From an uncultured Candidatus Rokubacteria bacterium (GTDB lineage: Bacteria; Methylomirabilota; Methylomirabilia; Rokubacteriales; CSP1-6), in the NCBI GenBank assembly GCA_963771355.1, contig CAVYTA010000005.1, positions 192,001 to 256,000 on the forward strand: a stretch of 64,000 nt of DNA, read 5' to 3'. Position 1 is the stretch's first letter. Each line of letters opens with the position of its first letter. A model generated the notes under the pieces. That model saw only the letters and a program-made list of their open reading frames with translations. It was not told the DNA's origin and searched no databases. A program made the position numbers and the translations under genes. Of this stretch, positions 32,601 to 43,145 are shown piece by piece.

Positions 32601-33492
32601 GCGCGCCGGCGTCCCAGCCCGGCGAGACCTTGCGGCAGCGGCAGCACCACGACGATGAGCGTGAGCCCCAGCCCCAGCATGTAGAGATAGCGGAACTTCA
32701 CGAGCAGGATCTCGCCGGCCAGGCCGAGGAAGGCGGCGCCCAGCACCGGGCCCCAGAGGGTTCCCGCGCCGCCGACCAGCGCCATGATCACGGTCTGGAA
32801 GGACACCAGCGGGCTGAACACCTGCGGATCGAGGTAGGTCCAGCGGGGCGCCATGGCGGCCCCGACCGCGCCCAGGAACGACGCGCTCAGAGCAAACGTC
32901 ACGATCTTCACCCGGACCGTGTCGATCCCGAGCGTCTCCGCGCGCTCCTCGTCGGCGCCGATGCCCACCAGGGCCAGCCCCCAGCGCGAGCGCCGAAGCA
33001 GGGCGGCGGTGACGACGGCGGCGCGGCGATGGCGAGGACGGTGTAGTAGAGCGCGAGGGGCCGGGCGGAGCCAGGATGAGGCGCCCGACGGTGCCGGTGA
33101 CGCTCGTCTCGTACCAGATGAGCGAGTGCTTGACCAGCTCGGCGAGGCCGAAGGTGAACACGCGAAGTAGGGGCCGCGCAGGCGAAGAGCGAGGAGCCCC
33201 ACCGCGAGCGCCAGCCGGCCGCCACCGCCGCGCCCGCCAGCACCGGGATGGGCCAGGCAGCGCGCGCGACGGTGAGCGCGCTGGCATAGGCGCCGAGGCC
33301 GAAGAAGGCGCCGGTGGCGAGCGAGAGGTAGCGCGAGGGCCCCGAGAACATCGCCCAGCCGACGGCGAGCGCCACGTCGGCAGGATGGCGAGCGTGAGCG
33401 ACGCGGTGATAGCTGGACAGCCCGGCGGGGGCGGCGAGCAGGGCGGCCGCGAGGGCCATCAGGCCGAGGGCGGGCGCGAGCCTAGCGACCAA
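32597..33492 (-). pseudogene. livM: Branched-chain amino-acid ABC permease (LivM-like), several frameshifts
   Basis: LivM segments spread over several frames (YLSLATGAFFGLGAY / LRLRGPYF / FTFGLAELVKH / GGAGTLWGPVLGA). Confidence 0.75.
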
Positions 33493-34342
33493 AGAGACCG
33501 GGGGCGGAGGACAGGATGAGGGACAGCACCCCGTAGGACGCGATGACGGAGGAGGGCGCGTACACGGCGGCGGTCTCGACCAGCCCGAGGAGGAGGGCGC
33601 CCGCGAGGCTCCCCAGGACATTGCCGAGCCCGCCCAGGATCACCACCACGAGCGCGGTGACGGTGTAGGGCAGCCCCATGAAAGGCGTGAGCTCGAAGAG
33701 CATGCTGACGAGCGAGCCGGTGGCCGCCGACATCGCGATGCCGGCGCCGAAGCACCGGCCGTGCAGGCGGGCGACGTCGATCCCTACCAGGCGGGCGCCG
33801 TCCGGTTCCTGCATGAGGGCCCGCACCGCCTTGCCGGCGAGGCTCCGCCGGAGATAGACGTAGAAGGCCAGCGAAAGGAAAAGGGCCACGCCCGCCGCCA
33901 CCATCCGGTTGGCCGGGAACACGGTGCCGAAGAGACGCACGGGCGTGGCGAGGTAGCTAAAGCCCTGGAGATCCGCGCTCCAGATCAGCAGGGCGCCGTT
34001 CTGCAGCACGAAGAGAAGGCCGAAGGACAGCAGGAGCGAGCGAGCCTCGAGCCCGCCCGCCTCACCGGCGGCGAGGACGCGCGCGTAGAGGAGCCGGTGA
34101 AGCGCGACACCCACCGCGAAGGCCGCGGGCGTGGTGACGAGCAGGGTGAGCAGCGGGGGCATCCCCCACCCCGTGTGCAGGGTGAAGGTGAGGTAGGCCC
34201 CGAGCATGAGGAACTCGCCGTGGGCCACGTTGAGCACCCGCATGAGCCCGTACTGGAGGTTCAGTCCCAGCGCGACGAGCGCGTAGATGCCGCCCGTGGT
34301 GAGCCCGCCGATGACGATGTCGGCGAGAAGCGTTCCCGTCAC
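33482..34342 (-). CDS. livH: Branched-chain amino-acid ABC permease (LivH-like); C-terminus possibly degraded
   Basis: GGIYALVALGLNLQYG, NVAHGEFLMLGAY, ILGGLGNVLGS. Confidence 0.8.
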   Translation of the reverse strand: MTGTLLADIVIGGLTTGGIYALVALGLNLQYGLMRVLNVAHGEFLMLGAYLTFTLHTGWGMPPLLTLLVTTPAAFAVGVALHRLLYARVLAAGEAGGLEARSLLLSFGLLFVLQNGALLIWSADLQGFSYLATPVRLFGTVFPANRMVAAGVALFLSLAFYVYLRRSLAGKAVRALMQEPDGARLVGIDVARLHGRCFGAGIAMSAATGSLVSMLFELTPFMGLPYTVTALVVVILGGLGNVLGSLAGALLLGLVETAAVYAPSSVIASYGVLSLILSSAPGLFGR

Positions 34343-34379
34343 GGGCGCACGCTGGCCGGCGCGCCGGGCCCCCGACGGC

Positions 34380-35591
34380 TCACGCCCAGGCGGGCTTGGG
34401 CACCACCGGGATGCCCGTCGCCACGCTCTTGGGCCAGACGAGCTCGAACTCGCCTTTCTGCCACTGGCCGACCATGCCGGGCGTACTCACGTTCTCGCCC
34501 TTCACGAACTTGATGGGGCCGGCCACGGTCTGGAACTCGGTGGCGTCGAGCATGGCCTTGATCTTCGGCCGATCCAGCCCCACCTCGCCCACGCAGCGCT
34601 CCAGGATCTGCAGCGAGGCGTAGGCGAAGGCGCTCGCCCACCGGTCCGGCTCCTTCGTGTGCTTCTTGACGTGGGCGTCGTAGTACTCGCGCGCCCCCGG
34701 GAACTTCACCTTCGGGTTCCAGCCCGCGATGCCCGTCACGCCCTCGGCGCCCTTGAAGCGGTCGCGATAGAAGGGAAAGGCCGTGCCCACCGCGGTGATG
34801 AAGACGGCGGGGTTCCAGTCCACCTCCTTGGCCTGACCGGTGACGAGGATATTGTCCGGAGGATAGGTGAGCCCGATGAAGCAGTCGGCGCCGGCGGCCT
34901 TGAAGCCCTTGAGGACCGGCGAGAGGTCCTTCACGCCGAGCGGGTAGCTCTTGGTGTCCACGATCTCGATCCCCGCCTCCTTGAGCGCCGGCGCGGTGGC
35001 GGTGTTCAGCTCGATGCCGAACAGGTCATTGACGTAGGCGACGGCGACCTTGCTGATCTTGCCCTGGGCCTTGAGGTCCTTGAGATAGGCGCCGAAGGCC
35101 TTCATCTGCGGCTCCGGCTGCACGAGCATGGTGTAGAAGTTCGGGATCGCCAGCTCCTTGAACTTGGCCGAGATCGCGGTGGGCCCGATCATGAGGATAG
35201 CCGAACTTGCTCGCCACCGGGGCGATGGCGAAGTTCATGGCCGATCCCCAGGGCGGCAGCATCAGGTCCACCTTGTCGTCGGCGGCGAGCTTCTCGTAGA
35301 AGCGGACCGCGGTCTCGATCTCGCTGCGGTCGTCGATGGTCGAGGAATTCGATCGGCCGCGAGGCCCTCGCCCTTGACCGCGAGCCCCCCGCGCACGTTC
35401 ACCTGCTCCTGCCAGAGGGTGTAGTTCGGAGCCTGGGTGATCCCAGCTCCCACCGCGTACGGGCCGGTGGCCGAGAGCGTGTAGCCGATCCGCACCGCCT
35501 TGGCCTGGGCGCGCGCGCGGCCATGCCACATCGGCACCGTCGCCGCGCCTGCCGCTGCTGTCTTGAGGAACTCGCGCCTGTGCATGGTCAT
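34380..35591 (-). pseudogene. LivJ/K-like Tat-exported substrate-binding protein, two frameshifts (~35345, ~35195)
   Basis: HRREFLK...SATGPYAVGA in one frame, DDRSEIET...PPWGS in a second, IGPTAIS...VVPKPAW in a third. Confidence 0.78.
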
Positions 35592-35623
35592 GTGGGTTCT
35601 CCCCCTTGGAGTCGGATGTCGGG

Positions 35624-36351
35624 TCAGACGGGAGCCGCCGTCGGCTCCCCCAGGTACGCCTGCACCACGCGAGGGTCGCGCGCCACGGTCGCGGGCGGGC
35701 CCGCGCAGATCACCTCACCGTGATGGAGCACGATGCACCGGTCGGCGGTCGCCATCACCGCGTGCATGACGTGCTCGACCCAGAAGAGTCCGATGCCGCG
35801 CTCGTCGCGGATGCGTTGGAACAGCGCGATGGCTCCGCCCACCTCGGTGGGGGTCAGCCCCGCCAGTAACTCGTCGAGCAGGAGGAAGCGCGGGCCCAGG
35901 GCGAGCGCCATCCCCAGCTCGAGGAGCTTCCGGCCCACCGCGGTGAGCGCGCGAGCGGGCGCGGCCGCCTGCCCGGCGAGGCCGACGCAGGGCCAGGAGC
36001 GCCTCGGGCGCCTCCGCCGCACGCTCGCTGAACCGGGCCGCCGCGCGGACATTGTCCAGCGGCTGACAGATCGAGGAAGGGGCGCGGCGTCTGGAAGGTG
36101 CGCCCCACGCCCAGCCGGCTGATCCGGAAGGCGGGGAGCCCCACCAGCTCGCGCGCGCCCAGACGCAGGCTTCCCGCCGACGGCCGGACGAGGCCGCTGA
36201 TCACGTTGAAGAGGGTGGTCTTGCCCGCGCCATTGGGCCCGATGAGGGCGACGATCTCCCCCTCGGCGACGCTGAAGCCCACCTCGTGGAGGACGCGGAG
36301 CCCGCCGAAGCTCTTCCCGATGCGCGCGCCGGCGAGGCTCTCCCGCGCCAT
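35624..36351 (-). pseudogene. livG: ABC ATP-binding protein (LivG-like), frameshifted
   Basis: GPNGAGKTT Walker A and RTFQ in one frame; LLLDELLAGL, VEHVM, VQAYLG in another. Confidence 0.8.
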
Positions 36352-36781
36352 CAGCCGGTCGAGGTGCCCCGGAGCCAGTCGATCACGTCCGCCGCCCCCG
36401 TGACCGAGCCGAAGTAGGTCTCCACGTTGAAGATCGTCGCCGCCTGCTGCCCCTCGGGGCCGGCCGCCATGGTGGCATCGGCGCCGAGAATGGGCCAGTA
36501 CTCGTGGAAGAACGCGTCGCGGAGGGTCGACTCCACGCAGACATTGGTGGCCACGCCGGTGAAGACCAGGTGGGTGATGCCGGCTTGAGGCCGCGCCGCC
36601 GCGCGTCGGTGATGATGCGGTGCACGGTGTCCACCACCGCGCGGGCCCCCGTGATGTCGAGCCCCGCGAGGTCGAAGAGCCCGCCCCGCTCCACGAAGGC
36701 GTTCCGCATGTCCACCACGGCGAGCGCGGCGCGCGCCGGATCGAGCGCGAGCGGGTGGGGACGGGCCGCCAAGGTGCCCAT
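36351..36781 (-). pseudogene. rutB: RutB-like cysteine hydrolase with a large internal deletion and frameshift
   Basis: TLAARP...[18 protein letters not shown]-terminus joined out of frame at ~36585 to [23 protein letters not shown]-terminus; central part absent. Confidence 0.78.
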
Positions 36782-36797
36782 GGGCGCGAGCGGGAGG

Positions 36798-37865
36798 CTA
36801 CGACGCGCCGAGGGCCTTCTCGACGAACATCTTGGCGTCGAACTCGTCGGCCACCTTGGCGTCGTTCTCGAGGATGGCGAGGGCGTCCACCTGGGCAAAC
36901 TCCATCACGCCCATGTCCTCGTAGGCCTTGCGCACCCGCGGGCCCCAGAGGCCGATGTCCTTGACGGTGGGGACGATTCTCGAGAAGAGCCGCGTGCGGA
37001 ACATCTTCATGTACTCGGACTTCTCGACCGCCTCCACGCATTCCTTCACCGGCAGCCCGAGGTTCTCCCACACCTCGCCCTGGTTGAACCGGTCGCGCAT
37101 GTGGTAGCAGGCCTCCACCACGAACTCCTCGCGCTCGTCCCGCTCGGCGTCGGTGAGCTCCGGGTAGTACTCGCGGAGCGCCAGGCGGCCGAAGGCGACG
37201 TGGCGCGCCTCGTCCTGCATGACGTAGGCGTTGACGCCGGCGGCGAGCGTGTTCGACGAGGTGTCGCGGATGCGCTGGAAGGCGGCGAGCGCCAGGCCCT
37301 CGATCAGGACCTGCATCCCGAGATAGGTCATGTCCCAGCGCTTGTCGGTGATGGTGCTCTCCAGGAGGAGCGCGAGGGTACGGGTGATGGGATAGGCGAG
37401 CTTGACCTTCTCGTGCAGCAGCCGCGCGTAGGCCTCGACGTGGCGGGCCTCGTCCATCACCTGGGTGGCCGCGTAGAACTTCGCCTGGATGCTGGGGACG
37501 GTCTGGACGATCTTGGCCGTCGCGATCAGCGCGCCCTGCTCACCGTGCATGAACTGCGAAAGGGTGTGGGCCTGGAGGTTGCGCCGTACGTGGGCCCGCT
37601 CCTTGGCGTCGAGCCGGTTCCAGAGGTCGGTGCCGTAGATCGCGATGGTGCGGTCGTCGAGCCCCATGGGATTGTCCGGATCCACCGGCAGCGACCAATC
37701 GAGCCGCTCGGCGGCGTCCCACTGCTGCTTCTTGCCCTTCCCGTAGAGCTTCAGCAGATCCGCGCTGCCGTCCTCGTATTCCCAGGTGAAGGCGGTGGTG
37801 GTCTGGCCCTCGACCTTCCACTGCGTCTGCTCGACGGGCAGGCGGTACAGGAACTGGCTCGACAT
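36798..37865 (-). CDS. Ferritin-like diiron oxygenase (AurF-like family)
   Basis: HGEQGA, two DEARH motifs, IEGLALAAF. Confidence 0.85.
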   Translation of the reverse strand: MSSQFLYRLPVEQTQWKVEGQTTTAFTWEYEDGSADLLKLYGKGKKQQWDAAERLDWSLPVDPDNPMGLDDRTIAIYGTDLWNRLDAKERAHVRRNLQAHTLSQFMHGEQGALIATAKIVQTVPSIQAKFYAATQVMDEARHVEAYARLLHEKVKLAYPITRTLALLLESTITDKRWDMTYLGMQVLIEGLALAAFQRIRDTSSNTLAAGVNAYVMQDEARHVAFGRLALREYYPELTDAERDEREEFVVEACYHMRDRFNQGEVWENLGLPVKECVEAVEKSEYMKMFRTRLFSRIVPTVKDIGLWGPRVRKAYEDMGVMEFAQVDALAILENDAKVADEFDAKMFVEKALGAS

Positions 37866-37965
37866 CGGGTGTGACCTCCAATCCAGGTTTCGCACCGAGG
37901 CCCGCGGGCCTTCGCCCCGGCCAATTGTCGGAAAATCATATCATTCGCGTTCGCCGGGCACCAGA

Positions 37966-37991
37966 CGCCAGGCGGCCATTGCCAGGGCGCC
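37966..37991 (+). repeat. 26-bp direct repeat, left border of islet
   Basis: CGCCAGGCGGCCATTGCCAGGGCGCC, identical to 41563-41588. Confidence 0.9.
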
Positions 37992-38219
37992 CCAGGAAGG
38001 AAATACTGCCGACGTTAGCTTACCCCGCTTCCGGGATCGGTCCACGTCTTGGCTTCATGAATCAGAAGGACGGCACTTCCTTTCAGCCGGTCCCATGAGA
38101 GCGGAACAACATACCCCGTTACCCAGTCGTTAGTCCCTAACCTCGGTAGTCCCGAAAGCTCGCATCATAACAGGAGCAACTATTGCCCGCCAATGCTGGG
38201 CCCGTCTCGTCCTGACGCG

Positions 38220-38235
38220 AGGCACGGCATATGCA
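38220..38235 (+). promoter_or_regulatory. Sigma54 (-24/-12) promoter-like site upstream of csbD
   Basis: AGGCACG-GCAT-ATGCA vs consensus TGGCACG-N4-TTGCW, correct GG-N10-GC spacing. Confidence 0.55.
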
Positions 38236-38281
38236 GTCCCCCTGAAGAAGCGGATGCCTAACAGACAGTGGAGGACAATTT

Positions 38282-38728
38282 ATGAACGCGGATGTCTTTG
38301 CAGGCCAGTGGAAGCACATGCGCGGTGACGTGAAATCGTGGTGGGGGAAACTCTCCGACTACGACGTAGACAGAATCGAGGGTCAAAAGGACAAGCTGAT
38401 CGGCTTAGTGCAAGAGAAATACGGATATGCTCGCGCTCAGGCCGAGCAAGAGGTCGAGCGGCGATTCAAGGAGTGGAATGACAAAACGGGCGGGACGTTC
38501 GCCAAAATGACGGCCACCGCTCAGGAGCTCGGGGCGAGTGCCGCCACCAGAGCGAACGAAACGGCCACAGTCGTCGGGGAGAAGATCGCGTCGGCTGGCT
38601 CGTACTTGCGGGACAAGAAATTTGCCGACCTGGCACCCGGCGTTACTTCGTTGATCCGCACCTACCCGGTCCAATCTTTACTCATTGGTATCGGCTTTGG
38701 CTATTTGCTTGGCCGGCGCTCGTGGTAA
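38282..38728 (+). CDS. csbD: CsbD-family stress protein with C-terminal ElaB/DUF883-like membrane tail
   Basis: AGQWKHMRGDVKSWWGKLSDYDVDRIEGQKDKLIGLVQEKYG; tail IRTYPVQSLLIGIGFGYLL; GGAGG SD. Confidence 0.85.
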   Translation: MNADVFAGQWKHMRGDVKSWWGKLSDYDVDRIEGQKDKLIGLVQEKYGYARAQAEQEVERRFKEWNDKTGGTFAKMTATAQELGASAATRANETATVVGEKIASAGSYLRDKKFADLAPGVTSLIRTYPVQSLLIGIGFGYLLGRRSW

Positions 38729-38899
38729 GGGCGACGCCTGCGATGAAGCGCCCCGGTCGATCTCTCCCTGGTCGCGAGGCTCTGCCAACTCCATGTGCCG
38801 CGTCGGCGGAGCTTTTTCACGGCGTCATTCGCGCCGGTATTCTTGGAGGACCATTTACGGCCCCGTCGCATCCGCTCACGTTTTCCAGGCCGTCGTACT

Positions 38900-38915
38900 T
38901 GGCAGACGCCTTGCT
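38900..38915 (+). promoter_or_regulatory. Sigma54 promoter-like site
   Basis: TGGCAGA-CGCC-TTGCT, 21 nt before the ATG at 38937. Confidence 0.6.
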
Positions 38916-38936
38916 CATCCAAGGGAAGGGAACCCA

Positions 38937-39251
38937 ATGAGGCAGCTGTTTCTTACCAGTTTGGTCGTGGAGATTAGTCTCACGGCGGCGTGCCCTCGAG
39001 GAGGAATCAGGACCGTCCGACCCCAGGAAGCCCTCCGATCGACGCCGTGCAGCGGCCAAGACCTTCAGGGACTCGTCACCGCGCTACGCGCAGCACAGGA
39101 TCGGCGACGAACGCTAGAGCAGAACCTCGCCACGCTCAACTCCGACGCCGTTCCCGTGGGTAATCGATACCGGGTAACACAGACTCACCTCAGACTCGCC
39201 AACCACAATTGCGACAGCGTAAAGACCGCCAAACCTTCAACGAATGAGTGA
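38937..39251 (+). pseudogene. Probably chimeric or degenerate ORF
   Basis: Signal-peptide-like start, then a coiled-coil segment LQGLVTALRAAQDRRRTLEQNLATL; atypical codon usage. Confidence 0.3.
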
Positions 39252-39260
39252 GGACACTTC

Positions 39261-39470
39261 ATGAACGGCGGTACCTCTGACGATAAAACGGTGGGGAAAG
39301 TCGCCACAATGACTGCCGCGGCTCAGGAGCTCGGGGCGACTTACGCCACCAAGGCGAACGAAGCGGCCACAGTCGTCGGCGAGAAGATCGGATCGCTGGC
39401 GACCTTGATCCGGGAAAACGCTCCGCACGAAGGCGGCCTTGGTTATTTGCTTGCCCGGCGCTCGAGGTGA
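39261..39470 (+). pseudogene. Internally deleted paralog of the C-terminal half of the csbD-fusion gene
   Basis: DKTVGKVATMTAAAQELGA...ANEAATVVGEKI...GLGYLLARRS matches 38480-38725 at both DNA and protein level. Confidence 0.7.
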
Positions 39471-39712
39471 ACATGGAGCGCGGATCGCCACGCCGCGTGA
39501 GGCCAGGCTTCCTGTCATTGATCGGCGGCATCGCGACTGATGCCAAAGAATTGCTGCTTCGGCGGCATCGGGAGCGTCGGGACCGGCGGCTTCACTTTGC
39601 CGGTTCGCTGAAATTTGTTGACGAGATCGGCGGCATGGACTATCCCGCATTTCACGCTCCTCCTCCGGGCCCCCGCCGGAACTCACTTTCGGGAAGTCGG
39701 GGAAACGTCGTG

Positions 39713-40429
39713 ATGCATCGTGCCGTTGCCATCCTGTTGGTGCTGATCGTCGTTGTGCCCTCGGGGTGCGCTTCCACGTCTCCGCCTCAACCCACCGCGC
39801 GTCCGTTCGAGAACCTCCGCCAGCTCGTTGTCGTCGCGTCCGGCGATACCACCTTCGCGGTGACCGAGCACAGCGCGGAGCCCGGCCGCACGTTCGACGA
39901 GATCCTGAAGTGGGGCTCATTTGGCGGCTGGTGGTGGAAGCCCGCCGCCGACCTCGCCCACCGAGGGATCAACTGGCTGCTCCAGCTCAACCGCAAGTCC
40001 GACGCCAGCGCGGGCCTCGGGGGCGTCTCGCCGCGCGAGGTGGTCGCCGCGGCCTTCGCCTCGACTCTCCTCGCGAGCGGACAGTACGACGAGATCACCA
40101 CACTCACGGCCGAGCCCAGCGGCGACGATCGCCGAAGCACGGACGCGATCGTACGGCTCGCCGTGCCGGCGTGGGGCCTGGTGCGCGTGCGCGAGGGCGA
40201 ACCCGATCTTCACTCCACGTTCGCGGACGTGCGCGCCGAACTGGTCTTGCGGGGCACGGGCGTCATCGTCTGGAAGCGTTCCGAGGACGTCACGGATTTT
40301 GAGCGTGTGCCCCTCGCCACGTTCTCCGCCGATCGTAATTTCACGCGCCAGCAGCTGATCGACGTTCTGGAACGCGGGGGCCAACGCCTCGCCAGCGAGC
40401 TGCTCTATGCGAGAAGCGCCGGCCGATGA
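39713..40429 (+). CDS. Hypothetical lipoprotein
   Basis: Hydrophobic N-terminus ending PSGC; host-like codon usage. Confidence 0.7.
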   Translation: MHRAVAILLVLIVVVPSGCASTSPPQPTARPFENLRQLVVVASGDTTFAVTEHSAEPGRTFDEILKWGSFGGWWWKPAADLAHRGINWLLQLNRKSDASAGLGGVSPREVVAAAFASTLLASGQYDEITTLTAEPSGDDRRSTDAIVRLAVPAWGLVRVREGEPDLHSTFADVRAELVLRGTGVIVWKRSEDVTDFERVPLATFSADRNFTRQQLIDVLERGGQRLASELLYARSAGR

Positions 40430-41031
40430 ACGCCGGCCGCTCGGTGGCGATTGCGGCACTCCTGTGTAGCCTGGCGCTGGCTTCGGGCGCCGGGTGCGCG
40501 CGCAATCAGAGGCTCGACGTGGGCTACCCGGAGGCCGGCGTCAACCGCGCGCTGCTGGCCTCGGTACCGCCGCAGCGCGTCGGCATCAGCCCGGTCGTCG
40601 ATCGTCGACTGGACACGAGCCGTATCGGCTCCCTGCCGAACGACGGCCGGGCCATGGTGACGCGCCGCCCCGTCAGCGACATTGTGCGCGACGCGCTCAC
40701 GGTCGAGGTCAGCCGTAACGGTCACGTGGTGCTTCCCGACGCCCAGGATGTGGTGCTCGCTGCCGAGGTCGAAGAGTTCTGGCTCGACGTGGTCGTCGGC
40801 CGCTCGCATGCGCAGTATGTCGGCAAGGTCGTACTCGCGCTCGCCGTGATCGACGGCCGCAACGGCGAAACGTTGTTCACCAGGCACTACGCCGCCACTA
40901 AACGTCGCGAGGCCGATGCCGACGCCAAGGACGTCGCCCGCGAGGTGATGGATGCCGCGCTGGCCCGCACGCTGCACGACTTCGCCACTGACCCGCAAGT
41001 GGTCGCCGCGTTCGACCGTCGCGCTCGCTGA
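40426..41031 (+). CDS. Hypothetical lipoprotein (YajG-like)
   Basis: GAGC lipobox; V.PVVDRR motif; ATGA overlap with the upstream gene. Confidence 0.7.
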   Translation: MNAGRSVAIAALLCSLALASGAGCARNQRLDVGYPEAGVNRALLASVPPQRVGISPVVDRRLDTSRIGSLPNDGRAMVTRRPVSDIVRDALTVEVSRNGHVVLPDAQDVVLAAEVEEFWLDVVVGRSHAQYVGKVVLALAVIDGRNGETLFTRHYAATKRREADADAKDVAREVMDAALARTLHDFATDPQVVAAFDRRAR

Positions 41032-41225
41032 CGTGCCGAGCTCCCTCGATCCAAACGTGCGTCGCCGCGCGATGGTACGCTAGGGCTTCACCTGTTCTAG
41101 GTACGAGATCATATGGTCTAGTGTAAGTGGGGTTTCGAAGCCGTTCGAGCGGTTGCGGCCGCGAGCTTGGTTGCCTCCTGCGCGGCCGGCCGGGAGACGT
41201 CAAGTAGCGGCACAGTCGGCACAAT

Positions 41226-41470
41226 TGAGTGACATTCCTGAGTGAAGTCTGGGTAAATGAAAAGGGGCTAACCCCCTCGTCGTTCATGGCTGCGGGGGCT
41301 GGATTTGAACAGCGACCCTTGGGTTATGAGCCCTTTCCCGTTCGCGACCACAGCCCACGCCACAAACAACACGTCGTAAACTAGCGCCTCTCACGCAAGT
41401 GACTTGGGCGCTCTTTGGCTCTCGTTGGGAGCAACTTCCTGGGTAATTCCCGGGTGAAGTCTGGGTGCGA
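41226..41470. repeat. Arm-type integrase-binding-like direct repeats on both sides of the tRNA fragment
   Basis: ATTCCTGAGTGAAGTCTGGGT (41234-41254) vs ATTCCCGGGTGAAGTCTGGGT (41446-41466), 19/21 identical; triplets of YGRGTR at 11-13-bp spacing. Confidence 0.7.
41287..41333 (-). other. 3' half of tRNA-fMet (anticodon arm to CCA); att-core-like remnant, not a functional tRNA
   Basis: Minus strand GGGCTCATAACCCAAGGGTCGCTGTTCAAATCCAGCCCCCGCAGCCA: CAT anticodon arm, T-loop, CCA end; 5' acceptor strand and D-arm absent. Confidence 0.88.
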
Positions 41471-41562
41471 CGATGCGCGCTTGATGGCGACCGTGACAGC
41501 GCTGCTCCGTCTGGTTCCGTAAGCCTCCTACCGAACCTTGGTTCTCGAAGGCTTTTCGTTGC

Positions 41563-41588
41563 CGCCAGGCGGCCATTGCCAGGGCGCC
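41563..41588 (+). repeat. 26-bp direct repeat, right border of islet; contains the -35 of the downstream SDR promoter
   Basis: Identical to 37966-37991; TTGCCA (41576)-N17-TAAGGT (41599). Confidence 0.9.
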
Positions 41589-41611
41589 GGGGCCACGCTA
41601 AGGTACGCGCC

Positions 41612-42421
41612 ATGTCCACCCCCACCGCGGGCCCGTCCCTGGACGGGCGCACCGTACTCATCACCGGTGCCGCCGGCGGCATTGGCGCCGCCACCGCGCG
41701 TCGGCTCGCCGCCGCGGGGGCCCGCCTGGTGCTCGCCGACCTCGACGGCGGCGGGGTCGAGAAGCTCGCCGCGGAGCTGGGGGCCGCCGCGGTGGCCGCC
41801 GACGTCACCCGCCCGGCCGATATCGCGCGAATGGTCGATGAGCCCTACCGGCGCTGGGGCCGGCTCGACGTGCTGTTCAACAACGCGGGCGTCATCCGGG
41901 TGCAGCCCATGCTGGACGTCACCGAGGCGGAGTGGGACCGCGTGCTCGACGTGAATCTCCGCGCCGTGTTCTTCGTGCTGCAGGCGGCGGCGCACCGCAT
42001 GGTGGATCAGACGCCGATGGCCGGCTCGGAGCTGCGCGGCAAGCTCATCCAGACCGCCTCCATTGCCGCCTATCGCGGCGCCAATCCGATGGTCGGGCCG
42101 TACGCCGCCTCCAAGGCCGGCGTGGTGAGCCTGACGCGCACCGCCGCCCAGGCGCTGGCGCGCCGGCGCATCACCTCGAATTGCATCTGCCCGGGCGCGG
42201 TGGACACGGCGATGTGGCAGCAGATCGATCGCGAGTGGGGCGCGCTCGAAGGCCTCGCGCCGGGGGAGGCCTGGAAACGCCGGACTTCCGGGATTCCGCT
42301 CGGCCGTCCCGAGACGGCCGACGACGTGGCGGGGCTGGTGCAGTTTCTCGCCGGCCCCGACTCCGACTACATGACGGGCCAGGCCATCAACATGGACGGC
42401 GGCCTCGTCATGGGCAACTAG
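41612..42421 (+). CDS. SDR oxidoreductase (sorbitol/acetoin dehydrogenase-like)
   Basis: TGAAGGIG, LFNNAG, YAASK, CPGAVDTAMW, MTGQAINMDGG. Confidence 0.9.
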   Translation: MSTPTAGPSLDGRTVLITGAAGGIGAATARRLAAAGARLVLADLDGGGVEKLAAELGAAAVAADVTRPADIARMVDEPYRRWGRLDVLFNNAGVIRVQPMLDVTEAEWDRVLDVNLRAVFFVLQAAAHRMVDQTPMAGSELRGKLIQTASIAAYRGANPMVGPYAASKAGVVSLTRTAAQALARRRITSNCICPGAVDTAMWQQIDREWGALEGLAPGEAWKRRTSGIPLGRPETADDVAGLVQFLAGPDSDYMTGQAINMDGGLVMGN

Positions 42422-42446
42422 CCGCGCGCGTTCTTCCCCCACCTTT

Positions 42447-42598
42447 TGCGGATGTCCGTAACCTCCGCATCGAGCAATAATTACACGCCCTTACACGGTT
42501 ATTCCGGACCGGCTCGCCCGCTCCCAGGCCGGCCTCCTCCCGCTCGCGACTGTGTGGCGGGCGCTTGCGACGCACCGGCCCCTGGCACGGTGGATGCT
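42447..42598 (+). promoter_or_regulatory. Sigma54 promoter with upstream enhancer-like palindrome
   Basis: TGGCACG-GTGG-ATGCT at 42583-42598; TGCGGA-N11-TCCGCA at 42447-42469; TTACAC-N4-TTACAC at 42481-42496. Confidence 0.6.
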
Positions 42599-42764
42599 CC
42601 GTTCTGCGATGCATGACGCGGAAAGAGATGCGTCGCCGGCTCCGTGACGGTCTTGCCCATCTCGGGCGTCTCCTCGAACTCGCACCTCGCCGTCACCCAT
42701 GGGTGATGGTGGTGCGAGCGCCCGGGACCACGGCGGTCGGCGCGCGATCAACAAGGAGGACGTC

Positions 42765-43145
42765 ATGAACGGAGAAGGTACGGCAACCACCTTCGTCGCC
42801 ATGGTGGCGTTCGGCATCGTGGTGCTGCTCGCCATCGGGATCATCGGGCGCCTGCTCGATCTGCGGCGCCGCCGCGAGGACGAGGCGCTCGGTCTGCAGT
42901 CGCGCGTGTCCGACGCGTTGATGCTCGAGCCCGGGCTCGCGGGGCTCGCGGTGACCGCCAGCATGCACGTGCCGCTGTGGCCGCGGAAGGCGCCGAAGCT
43001 CGAGATCGCGGGGCGGGTGCCCACGCCCGACCAGCACGAGCTCGCCTCCCGGGTCGCCATGCGGACGCTCGCCGACCGTGCCGCCCAGGTGGAGATCGAG
43101 GACAAGGTGTGGGTGGATCCCGTGATGCGGGAACACGCAGCGTGA
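42765..43145 (+). CDS. Membrane-anchored BON-like domain protein
   Basis: AAGGAGG SD; TM helix followed by LQSRVSDALMLEP...LEIAGRVPTPDQ...VEIED. Confidence 0.65.
   Translation: MNGEGTATTFVAMVAFGIVVLLAIGIIGRLLDLRRRREDEALGLQSRVSDALMLEPGLAGLAVTASMHVPLWPRKAPKLEIAGRVPTPDQHELASRVAMRTLADRAAQVEIEDKVWVDPVMREHAA

Follow-up and report, generated by a model that had tools for sequence, protein, structure and literature searches.

How could a block of foreign genes settle between two bacterial promoters, bracketed by an exact direct repeat, with no recognised recombinase of its own? This question is raised by a 3,571-bp islet in a 64,000-nucleotide stretch of DNA (the window, to which all coordinates refer unless a contig is named) from an uncultured Candidatus Rokubacteria bacterium. 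The islet separates an AurF-like oxygenase gene from a short-chain dehydrogenase (SDR) gene. An earlier, sequence-only reading interpreted it as a non-autonomous element that is mobilised in trans and targets or duplicates promoter DNA. We compared the window genome (G000; 5.53 Mb, 99.8% complete) with other genomes (the remaining G numbers) and arrived at another answer, which we hold with moderate confidence: a foreign cargo fragment was captured once by illegitimate joining associated with repair or replication restart, not by its own recombinase, and likely came from cassette arrays at tRNA-fMet genes.

An insertion with a 26-bp target duplication

The islet proved to be a genuine insertion that duplicated 26 bp of its target. 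As the sequence-only reading had described, an exact 26-mer brackets it, with the left copy at 37966–37991 and the right copy at 41563–41588 (forward strand); the match cannot be extended on either side. The aurF-like and SDR genes are adjacent in six of seven congeners, in G004 and G007 as known from coordinates alone, and the islet is absent from this site in all seven. The empty site that the same reading proposed to look for in relatives is present in G002 (~90% identical), where the left flank, a single copy of the 26-mer (22 of 26 positions identical), and the right flank follow one another. The 26-mer matches at 19 of 26 positions in G003 and was not seen in the three other congeners whose spacer sequence was read; the aurF–SDR spacers of G001, G005, and G006 are shorter and different. 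G006 contains two near-identical aurF–SDR loci in one bin (on its contigs C9 and C5), reflecting either a duplication or contamination.

Two sources of error named beforehand, a dispersed repeat and a duplication created by assembly, were both checked. The 26-mer has no copies in the genome besides these two, even with up to four mismatches allowed, which rules out a dispersed repeat such as a repetitive extragenic palindrome (REP) or a miniature inverted-repeat transposable element (MITE). It is not tRNA-derived either, as had been noted; both boundaries consist of promoter DNA, and ARAGORN found no tRNA in the window. Short-read contigs from run X1, which could be close to the source sample, cover 37889–41439 and 41421–41886 and thereby bridge both repeats at flank-like depth, making an artefact unlikely. 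The left junction is also covered by run X7, which belongs to another study and differs at ~0.4% of the islet positions; the islet appears older than the divergence of the strains. Runs X5 and X6 cover it in parts only, and the gaps hint at partial alleles. We propose that the islet has been inherited vertically since its capture and is now eroding. Of 24 joints in the short-read contigs, 15 were listed, and none of these was an empty-site skip or a circle junction; such contigs lose rare forms, so that absence is not implied. A metagenome scan with a degenerate promoter pattern returned four loci, each of the G003 kind, and no conspecific empty site was seen. In G003 (contig C85) and in four metagenome contigs, the aurF–SDR spacer holds another, independent insert of 2.1 kb, with no duplication; it begins within 1 bp of the left boundary of the islet, and its gene looks sensor-kinase-like from its sequence.

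The G+C content of the islet is 63.1% against 69.8% for the genome, a value as low as which is found in 1.6% of 5000 random windows; the lipoprotein part reaches 69% and the remainder 59–60%. There are no terminal inverted repeats at its ends, the best inverted match between them being 6 bp long and internal. The 26-mer had no match in the viral contigs of IMG/VR, and the islet had none in PLSDB.

Foreign cargo, a passenger att joint, and the host promoters

The low-GC segments, csbD cargo, gene fragments, two lipoproteins, and attachment (att)-like site that the sequence-only reading had placed inside the islet are all present, and the cargo is foreign. The block 38883–41097 recurs with 81–93% identity at an unrelated locus of G004, and the block 38740–41035 with 86–96% identity in G096, a member of another genus, beside a catalase-like gene. 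No exact repeat longer than 12 bp within 8 kb brackets the copy in G004, and none longer than 15 bp that in G096; the cargo regions fetched from these genomes showed nothing that matches the att module. The cargo thus occurs at unrelated loci without these ends, which argues that it moves horizontally, though not as a unit with them.

All cargo genes lie on the forward strand. The first (38282–38728) encodes a CsbD-like stress protein (PF05532, E = 3.8e-12), the C-terminal part of which is paralogous to the product of the open reading frame (ORF) starting at 39261; the corresponding internal repeat (38480–38599 and 39282–39400) is 83% identical. A decayed region of small ORFs common to G004 and G096 follows (38740–39260; 81–86% DNA identity), then a gene for a small membrane-anchored protein (39261–39470), presumably ElaB/YqjD-like, which has 69 residues instead of the 117 in G004 through an internal deletion. 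At 39467–39566 lies the 5′ stub of a gene for a 127-residue membrane protein, where the blastn alignment breaks at 39562/39567 and ~780 bp of G004 are missing. Two lipoprotein genes complete the cargo. The product of the first (39713–40429; 238 residues) falls in Atlas clusters without a Pfam family, and its region is 93% identical to G004 and 96% to G096. The second (40426–41031; 201 residues) is YajG-like, according to Atlas matches carrying PF03923 (score 0.98), with no match to a Pfam or NCBIfam hidden Markov model. The taxa in the Atlas clusters and the 16S sequence suggest a Rokubacteria host. Relative to G004, one gene of the islet is ~145 bp shorter, and a further loss of ~780 bp extends over two others; the islet is decaying by internal deletions.

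The earlier statement that no integrase or transposase is encoded agrees with our scans, in which no such family matched among four islet ORFs in Pfam and four in NCBIfam. The nearest tyrosine-recombinase match is ~216 kb away. The islet also has none of the casposon hallmarks (solo Cas1, PolB, terminal inverted repeats), the search for Cas1 having been confined to the islet.

What the islet does contain is a 235-bp att module (41234–41468, reverse strand), made of an arm, the 3′ half of tRNA-fMet from the anticodon loop onward, and a second arm; each arm contains 11-bp direct repeats. Alignment of att copies, a tRNA match, and a motif search define a P′-type arm at 41234–41286, with its direct repeats and a terminator hairpin carrying a 17-nt deletion, a core at 41287–41336 that begins at the anticodon stem-loop and has a 1-nt deletion, and a P-type arm at 41337–41468 with three direct repeats at 41434–41466. 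The tRNA-derived site itself (41273–41333) is 87% identical to the tRNA-fMet gene at C7:761862–761923. In an alignment with seven modules of other genomes, mean column identity is 86%; the window copy is decayed, having lost 17, 2, and 1 nt in separate deletions. In G000, the long arm motif occurs inside the islet only, and Rfam gave two chance matches and nothing else over 37500–43000.

Integration through an att site splits it into attL and attR. The joint in the islet is whole and lies 94 bp inside the right repeat, and must therefore be a passenger that did not mediate the insertion. The intervening gap (41469–41562) has no homolog past 41481 in 183 genomes. The sequence-only reading had rejected a standard tRNA-targeted island on the ground that the tRNA-derived site is internal, and rightly so: the joint is unsplit, the boundaries are promoter DNA with neither a full tRNA nor a duplicated tRNA 3′ end, and no integrase stands beside the att module. 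Like a cis-mobilisable element (CIME), the islet lacks integration and transfer genes; unlike one, it has no attL and attR at its ends, the sole recognisable att being internal and the 26-mer being host DNA of no att family. The internal module, on the other hand, has the features of a joint between CIME-type tRNA-fMet cassettes, namely a tRNA half, direct arm repeats, and tandem recurrence behind a tRNA gene.

The insertion spared the promoters on both sides. On the left, the AurF-like di-iron oxygenase family gene (36798–37868, reverse strand; PF11583, E = 1.9e-17) is preceded by its likely promoter, an extended −10 element (TG-A-TATGAT) with a conserved GGGCACCAGA block (37935–37965, reverse strand). 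This region is kept up to 37965 in the window, G002, and G003, and GGGCACCAGA is spared by both insertions. Further upstream in the window, several apparent frameshifts affect a branched-chain amino acid ATP-binding cassette (ABC) operon and an isochorismatase-like gene (33000–36900), which are likely long-read assembly errors. On the right, the SDR gene (41612–42421, forward strand; PF13561, E = 2.3e-58) takes its −35 box from the right repeat copy. The window, G002, and G003 all keep the arrangement TTGC..-N17-TAAGGT-N7-ATG, and the transcript is likely leaderless because the ATG lies 7 nt past the −10 box. Both promoter patterns noted earlier, TTGCCA-N17-TAAGGT for SDR and TTGCCA-N17-AATACT at the left copy, were found as described, and the former is complete at the right copy, bearing out the claim that the islet leaves the host promoter whole. 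The latter (37979–38007, forward strand) makes a hybrid promoter at the left junction possible: it has nine of 12 consensus matches, but its −10 box is missing the first T and the csbD start is 275 bp away; an AATACT-type −10 at 17-bp spacing has a chance level of 1.3% in the non-coding DNA of the islet. Approximately 13 bp (37966–37978) could receive an insertion without harm to either promoter, which would account for the intact SDR promoter as well as the boundary common with G003, with no targeting needed.

Other islets, tRNA-fMet arrays, and a proposed route of entry

Long duplications recur in this genome, but they are rare and variable in length. Comparison of 1.57 Mb of the 4.7-Mb G002 genome with G000 yielded 61 clean indels of 0.3–30 kb. 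Five of these had junction repeats that scored higher than 99% of a random control: the aurF–SDR islet, a tRNA island, a tandem paralog, one unresolved case, and a 3.9-kb islet at C5:319,250–323,352. This last islet is empty in G002, is bounded by a decayed ~111-bp duplication of the 3′ end of a secretin-like gene, and carries a broken peptidase/surface-protein-like gene. A repeat scan of G000 gave 60 isolated exact repeats of at least 20 bp among 357 pairs; 13 were inspected by eye and three tested against five congeners. A 1.45-kb islet at C5:536,900–538,430, with a small lipoprotein gene and an ABC substrate-binding-like gene, shows a 42-bp duplication across a gene end and a gene start; its site is empty in G001, G003, and G007, and G002 has the left part only. 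At C5:85,877–90,304, a 4.4-kb ABC operon lies between the copies of an exact 22-bp repeat (85,877/90,283), which takes in the 3′ end of a gene for a substrate-binding protein, and the empty site was not found in five congeners. An exact 25-bp repeat of promoter and start codon before two genes (C6:415,122/417,020) involves no insertion, G004 and G007 being colinear, and the diverged copies in relatives suggest local gene conversion. None of the three islets, with duplications of 26, 42, and ~111 bp, has terminal inverted repeats. Their duplicated targets are unrelated, and the other two are gene ends, not promoters, unlike the long repeats over −35 boxes for which the earlier reading had proposed to scan. 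The variable duplication length and the unrelated targets favour illegitimate, repair-associated capture.

The passenger joint points to a possible source. Of the 183 genomes of the order, 15 carry the long arm motif. The largest array, in G120, has 16 arm copies on one strand of contig C2 between 2,065,034 and 2,203,568 (~140 kb; none in a reversed control), downstream of a tRNA-fMet gene at 2,229,464–540; the sole tyrosine-recombinase match in this stretch, which was read as DNA from 2.10 Mb onward, is a split one beside the tRNA. Smaller arrays occur in G147 (contig C29), G121 (C36), G007 (C70), G085 (C19), and others. Throughout, same-strand cargo cassettes are parted by a conserved 250-bp arm-core-arm module, a layout resembling that of integrons. 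The ORFs flanking arm motifs encode GNATs, kinases, hydrolases, and regulators; among 85 of them (80 of 112 listed and five longer ones), one rve_3 fragment was found, but neither a tyrosine nor a serine recombinase. A GTDB scan gave 59 loci with the arm motif, some overlapping, of which 12 had a full tRNA-Met. Only one of the 59, L310 (204–1597 and 6001–6149), has a full-length tyrosine integrase within 6 kb of the motif; this protein, of 367 aa and with a small ORF upstream of its gene, is a candidate for the trans-acting enzyme. The L310 contig is short, the far arm lies off it, and its bin label is unlike that of other carriers. No non-att repeat of at least 18 bp brackets the motif at any of the 59 loci within the fetched flanks, and the long arm motif had no match in viral contigs. 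The arrays match the tandem accretion of CIME-like elements described in PMC5704250. Titles and abstract openings in the open-access literature gave no description of such arrays or of this islet type, nor of integrase-bearing tRNA islands in Rokubacteria. G000 also carries 99% identical 1.9-kb copies at C5:997,822–999,733 and C7:761,865–763,777, the latter being an element start behind tRNA-fMet; the C5 copy sits in a tRNA-Glu island, where there is another arm-core-arm joint, one that belongs to a different arm family.

We therefore picture the capture as follows. The tRNA-fMet cassette arrays of the lineage are the likely source of the donor fragment, which would have been either an excised circle opened ~94 bp from the att joint or a linear piece reaching across a two-cassette joint. 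Break repair or fork restart, independent of sequence, probably joined it to the chromosome and duplicated 26 bp of host DNA. The site was likely filtered by selection rather than targeted, as the gap between the back-to-back promoters is about a dozen bases. Two Ku homologs and three LigD-polymerase homologs are present in G000 and might have taken part.

Several points weigh against this reading. The presence of Ku and LigD does not show that they acted, and a 111-bp duplication would be hard to obtain from end fill-in alone. No donor molecule was found, and 37992–38270 and 41482–41562 have no homolog in the 183 genomes. With the tRNA island, the tandem paralog, and the unresolved case set aside, long duplications occur in two of the 61 indels, and the statement that no recombinase was recognised in the two other islets comes from ORFs judged by eye. 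The islet's first bases together with the last C of the repeat form CCCAGGAAG, which matches the arm repeat of the att module; this likeness may be accidental or may mean that an integrase was involved. Two insertions with one boundary could also reflect a real hot spot.

The islet could instead be the eroded, CIME-like remnant of a larger site-specific island, with the 26-mer as the att core and the integrase deleted. Tyrosine-recombinase elements leave direct repeats of 8–60 bp and decay into CIMEs, according to PMC5704250, and the internal deletions, the partial coverage in X5 and X6, and the left boundary common with the G003 insert would all suit this history. We nevertheless regard it as unlikely, as the 26-mer is poorly conserved intergenic DNA, ill suited as a target for an integrase, no remnant of such an enzyme was found, and the viral and plasmid searches were empty. 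A more elaborate possibility, which we likewise rate as unlikely, is an integron-like cassette system at tRNA-fMet, with small units that lack an integrase and are linked by the conserved 250-bp att module, in which a rare integrase would cut circles out in trans and a second, host pathway would paste them at unrelated sites with 26–110 bp duplications, our islet being a caught example. If so, accessory genes would move from the array into the core chromosome.

The model of the sequence-only reading, an element moved in trans by an IS1549/IS1634-like or promoter-targeting enzyme, seems to us rather improbable. It had taken ordinary insertion sequence (IS) duplications to be much shorter than 26 bp, but long ones are known: IS1549 and IS1634 produce variable target duplications of 8–514 bp, as PMC2266710 reports. 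This precedent, the three G000 islets with long duplications, and the candidate −10 at the left junction, with its low chance level, speak for such an element. Against it, IS1634 (NF033559) has no match in the nearly complete G000, inverted repeats are lacking at all three islets, the cargo occurs elsewhere unbracketed by these ends, the other two duplications are gene ends, and no arm-motif locus has a bracketing non-att repeat. Movement in trans via the repeat and promoter targeting are thus unsupported. It is very unlikely that assembly created the duplication or that relatives have lost an ancestral islet. Frameshifts in nearby genes of the assembly and the 25-bp promoter repeat on C6, which marks no insertion, would fit an artefact, but short-read contigs cross both junctions and no congener has the islet at the site; the low G+C content and the 96% cross-genus identity of the cargo indicate gain rather than an ancestral state.

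The islet is a clean gene gain without a mobility gene, verified by an empty site, in which a passenger att joint reveals the donor pool. If long-duplication capture recurs, it would be a transfer route missed by island finders keyed on integrases and tRNAs. By its looks, the islet is an old, decaying, one-off insertion, and the cassette arrays are the more interesting lead.

Comparison with known systems

Genomic islets can arise by illegitimate recombination. The islet resembles genomic islets, a term used in PMC5812530, in being a small, low-GC foreign block with no mobility gene and with strain-level erosion; it differs in its exact 26-bp duplication and in the passenger att joint that shows the donor pool. 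With CIMEs and tandem accretion at tRNA genes (PMC5704250, citing Pavlovic 2004), it has in common the internal 235-bp att joint of mostly integrase-free elements standing in tandem behind one tRNA gene. It departs from them in that it is bounded by duplicated, unrelated host DNA and the att joint is internal and unsplit. IS1549 and IS1634, according to PMC2266710, also produce long, variable target duplications at unrelated sites. The islet has neither a transposase nor inverted repeats, unlike these elements, and its genome has no IS1634. Clusters of attC sites lacking integron-integrases (CALIN) are integron cassette clusters without an integrase. The donor arrays are similar to CALIN in their same-strand small cargo units, conserved separators, and lack of an adjacent integrase, whereas their separators are tRNA-derived att joints with arm repeats instead of attC hairpins, and their cargo units are multi-gene, with genes on both strands.

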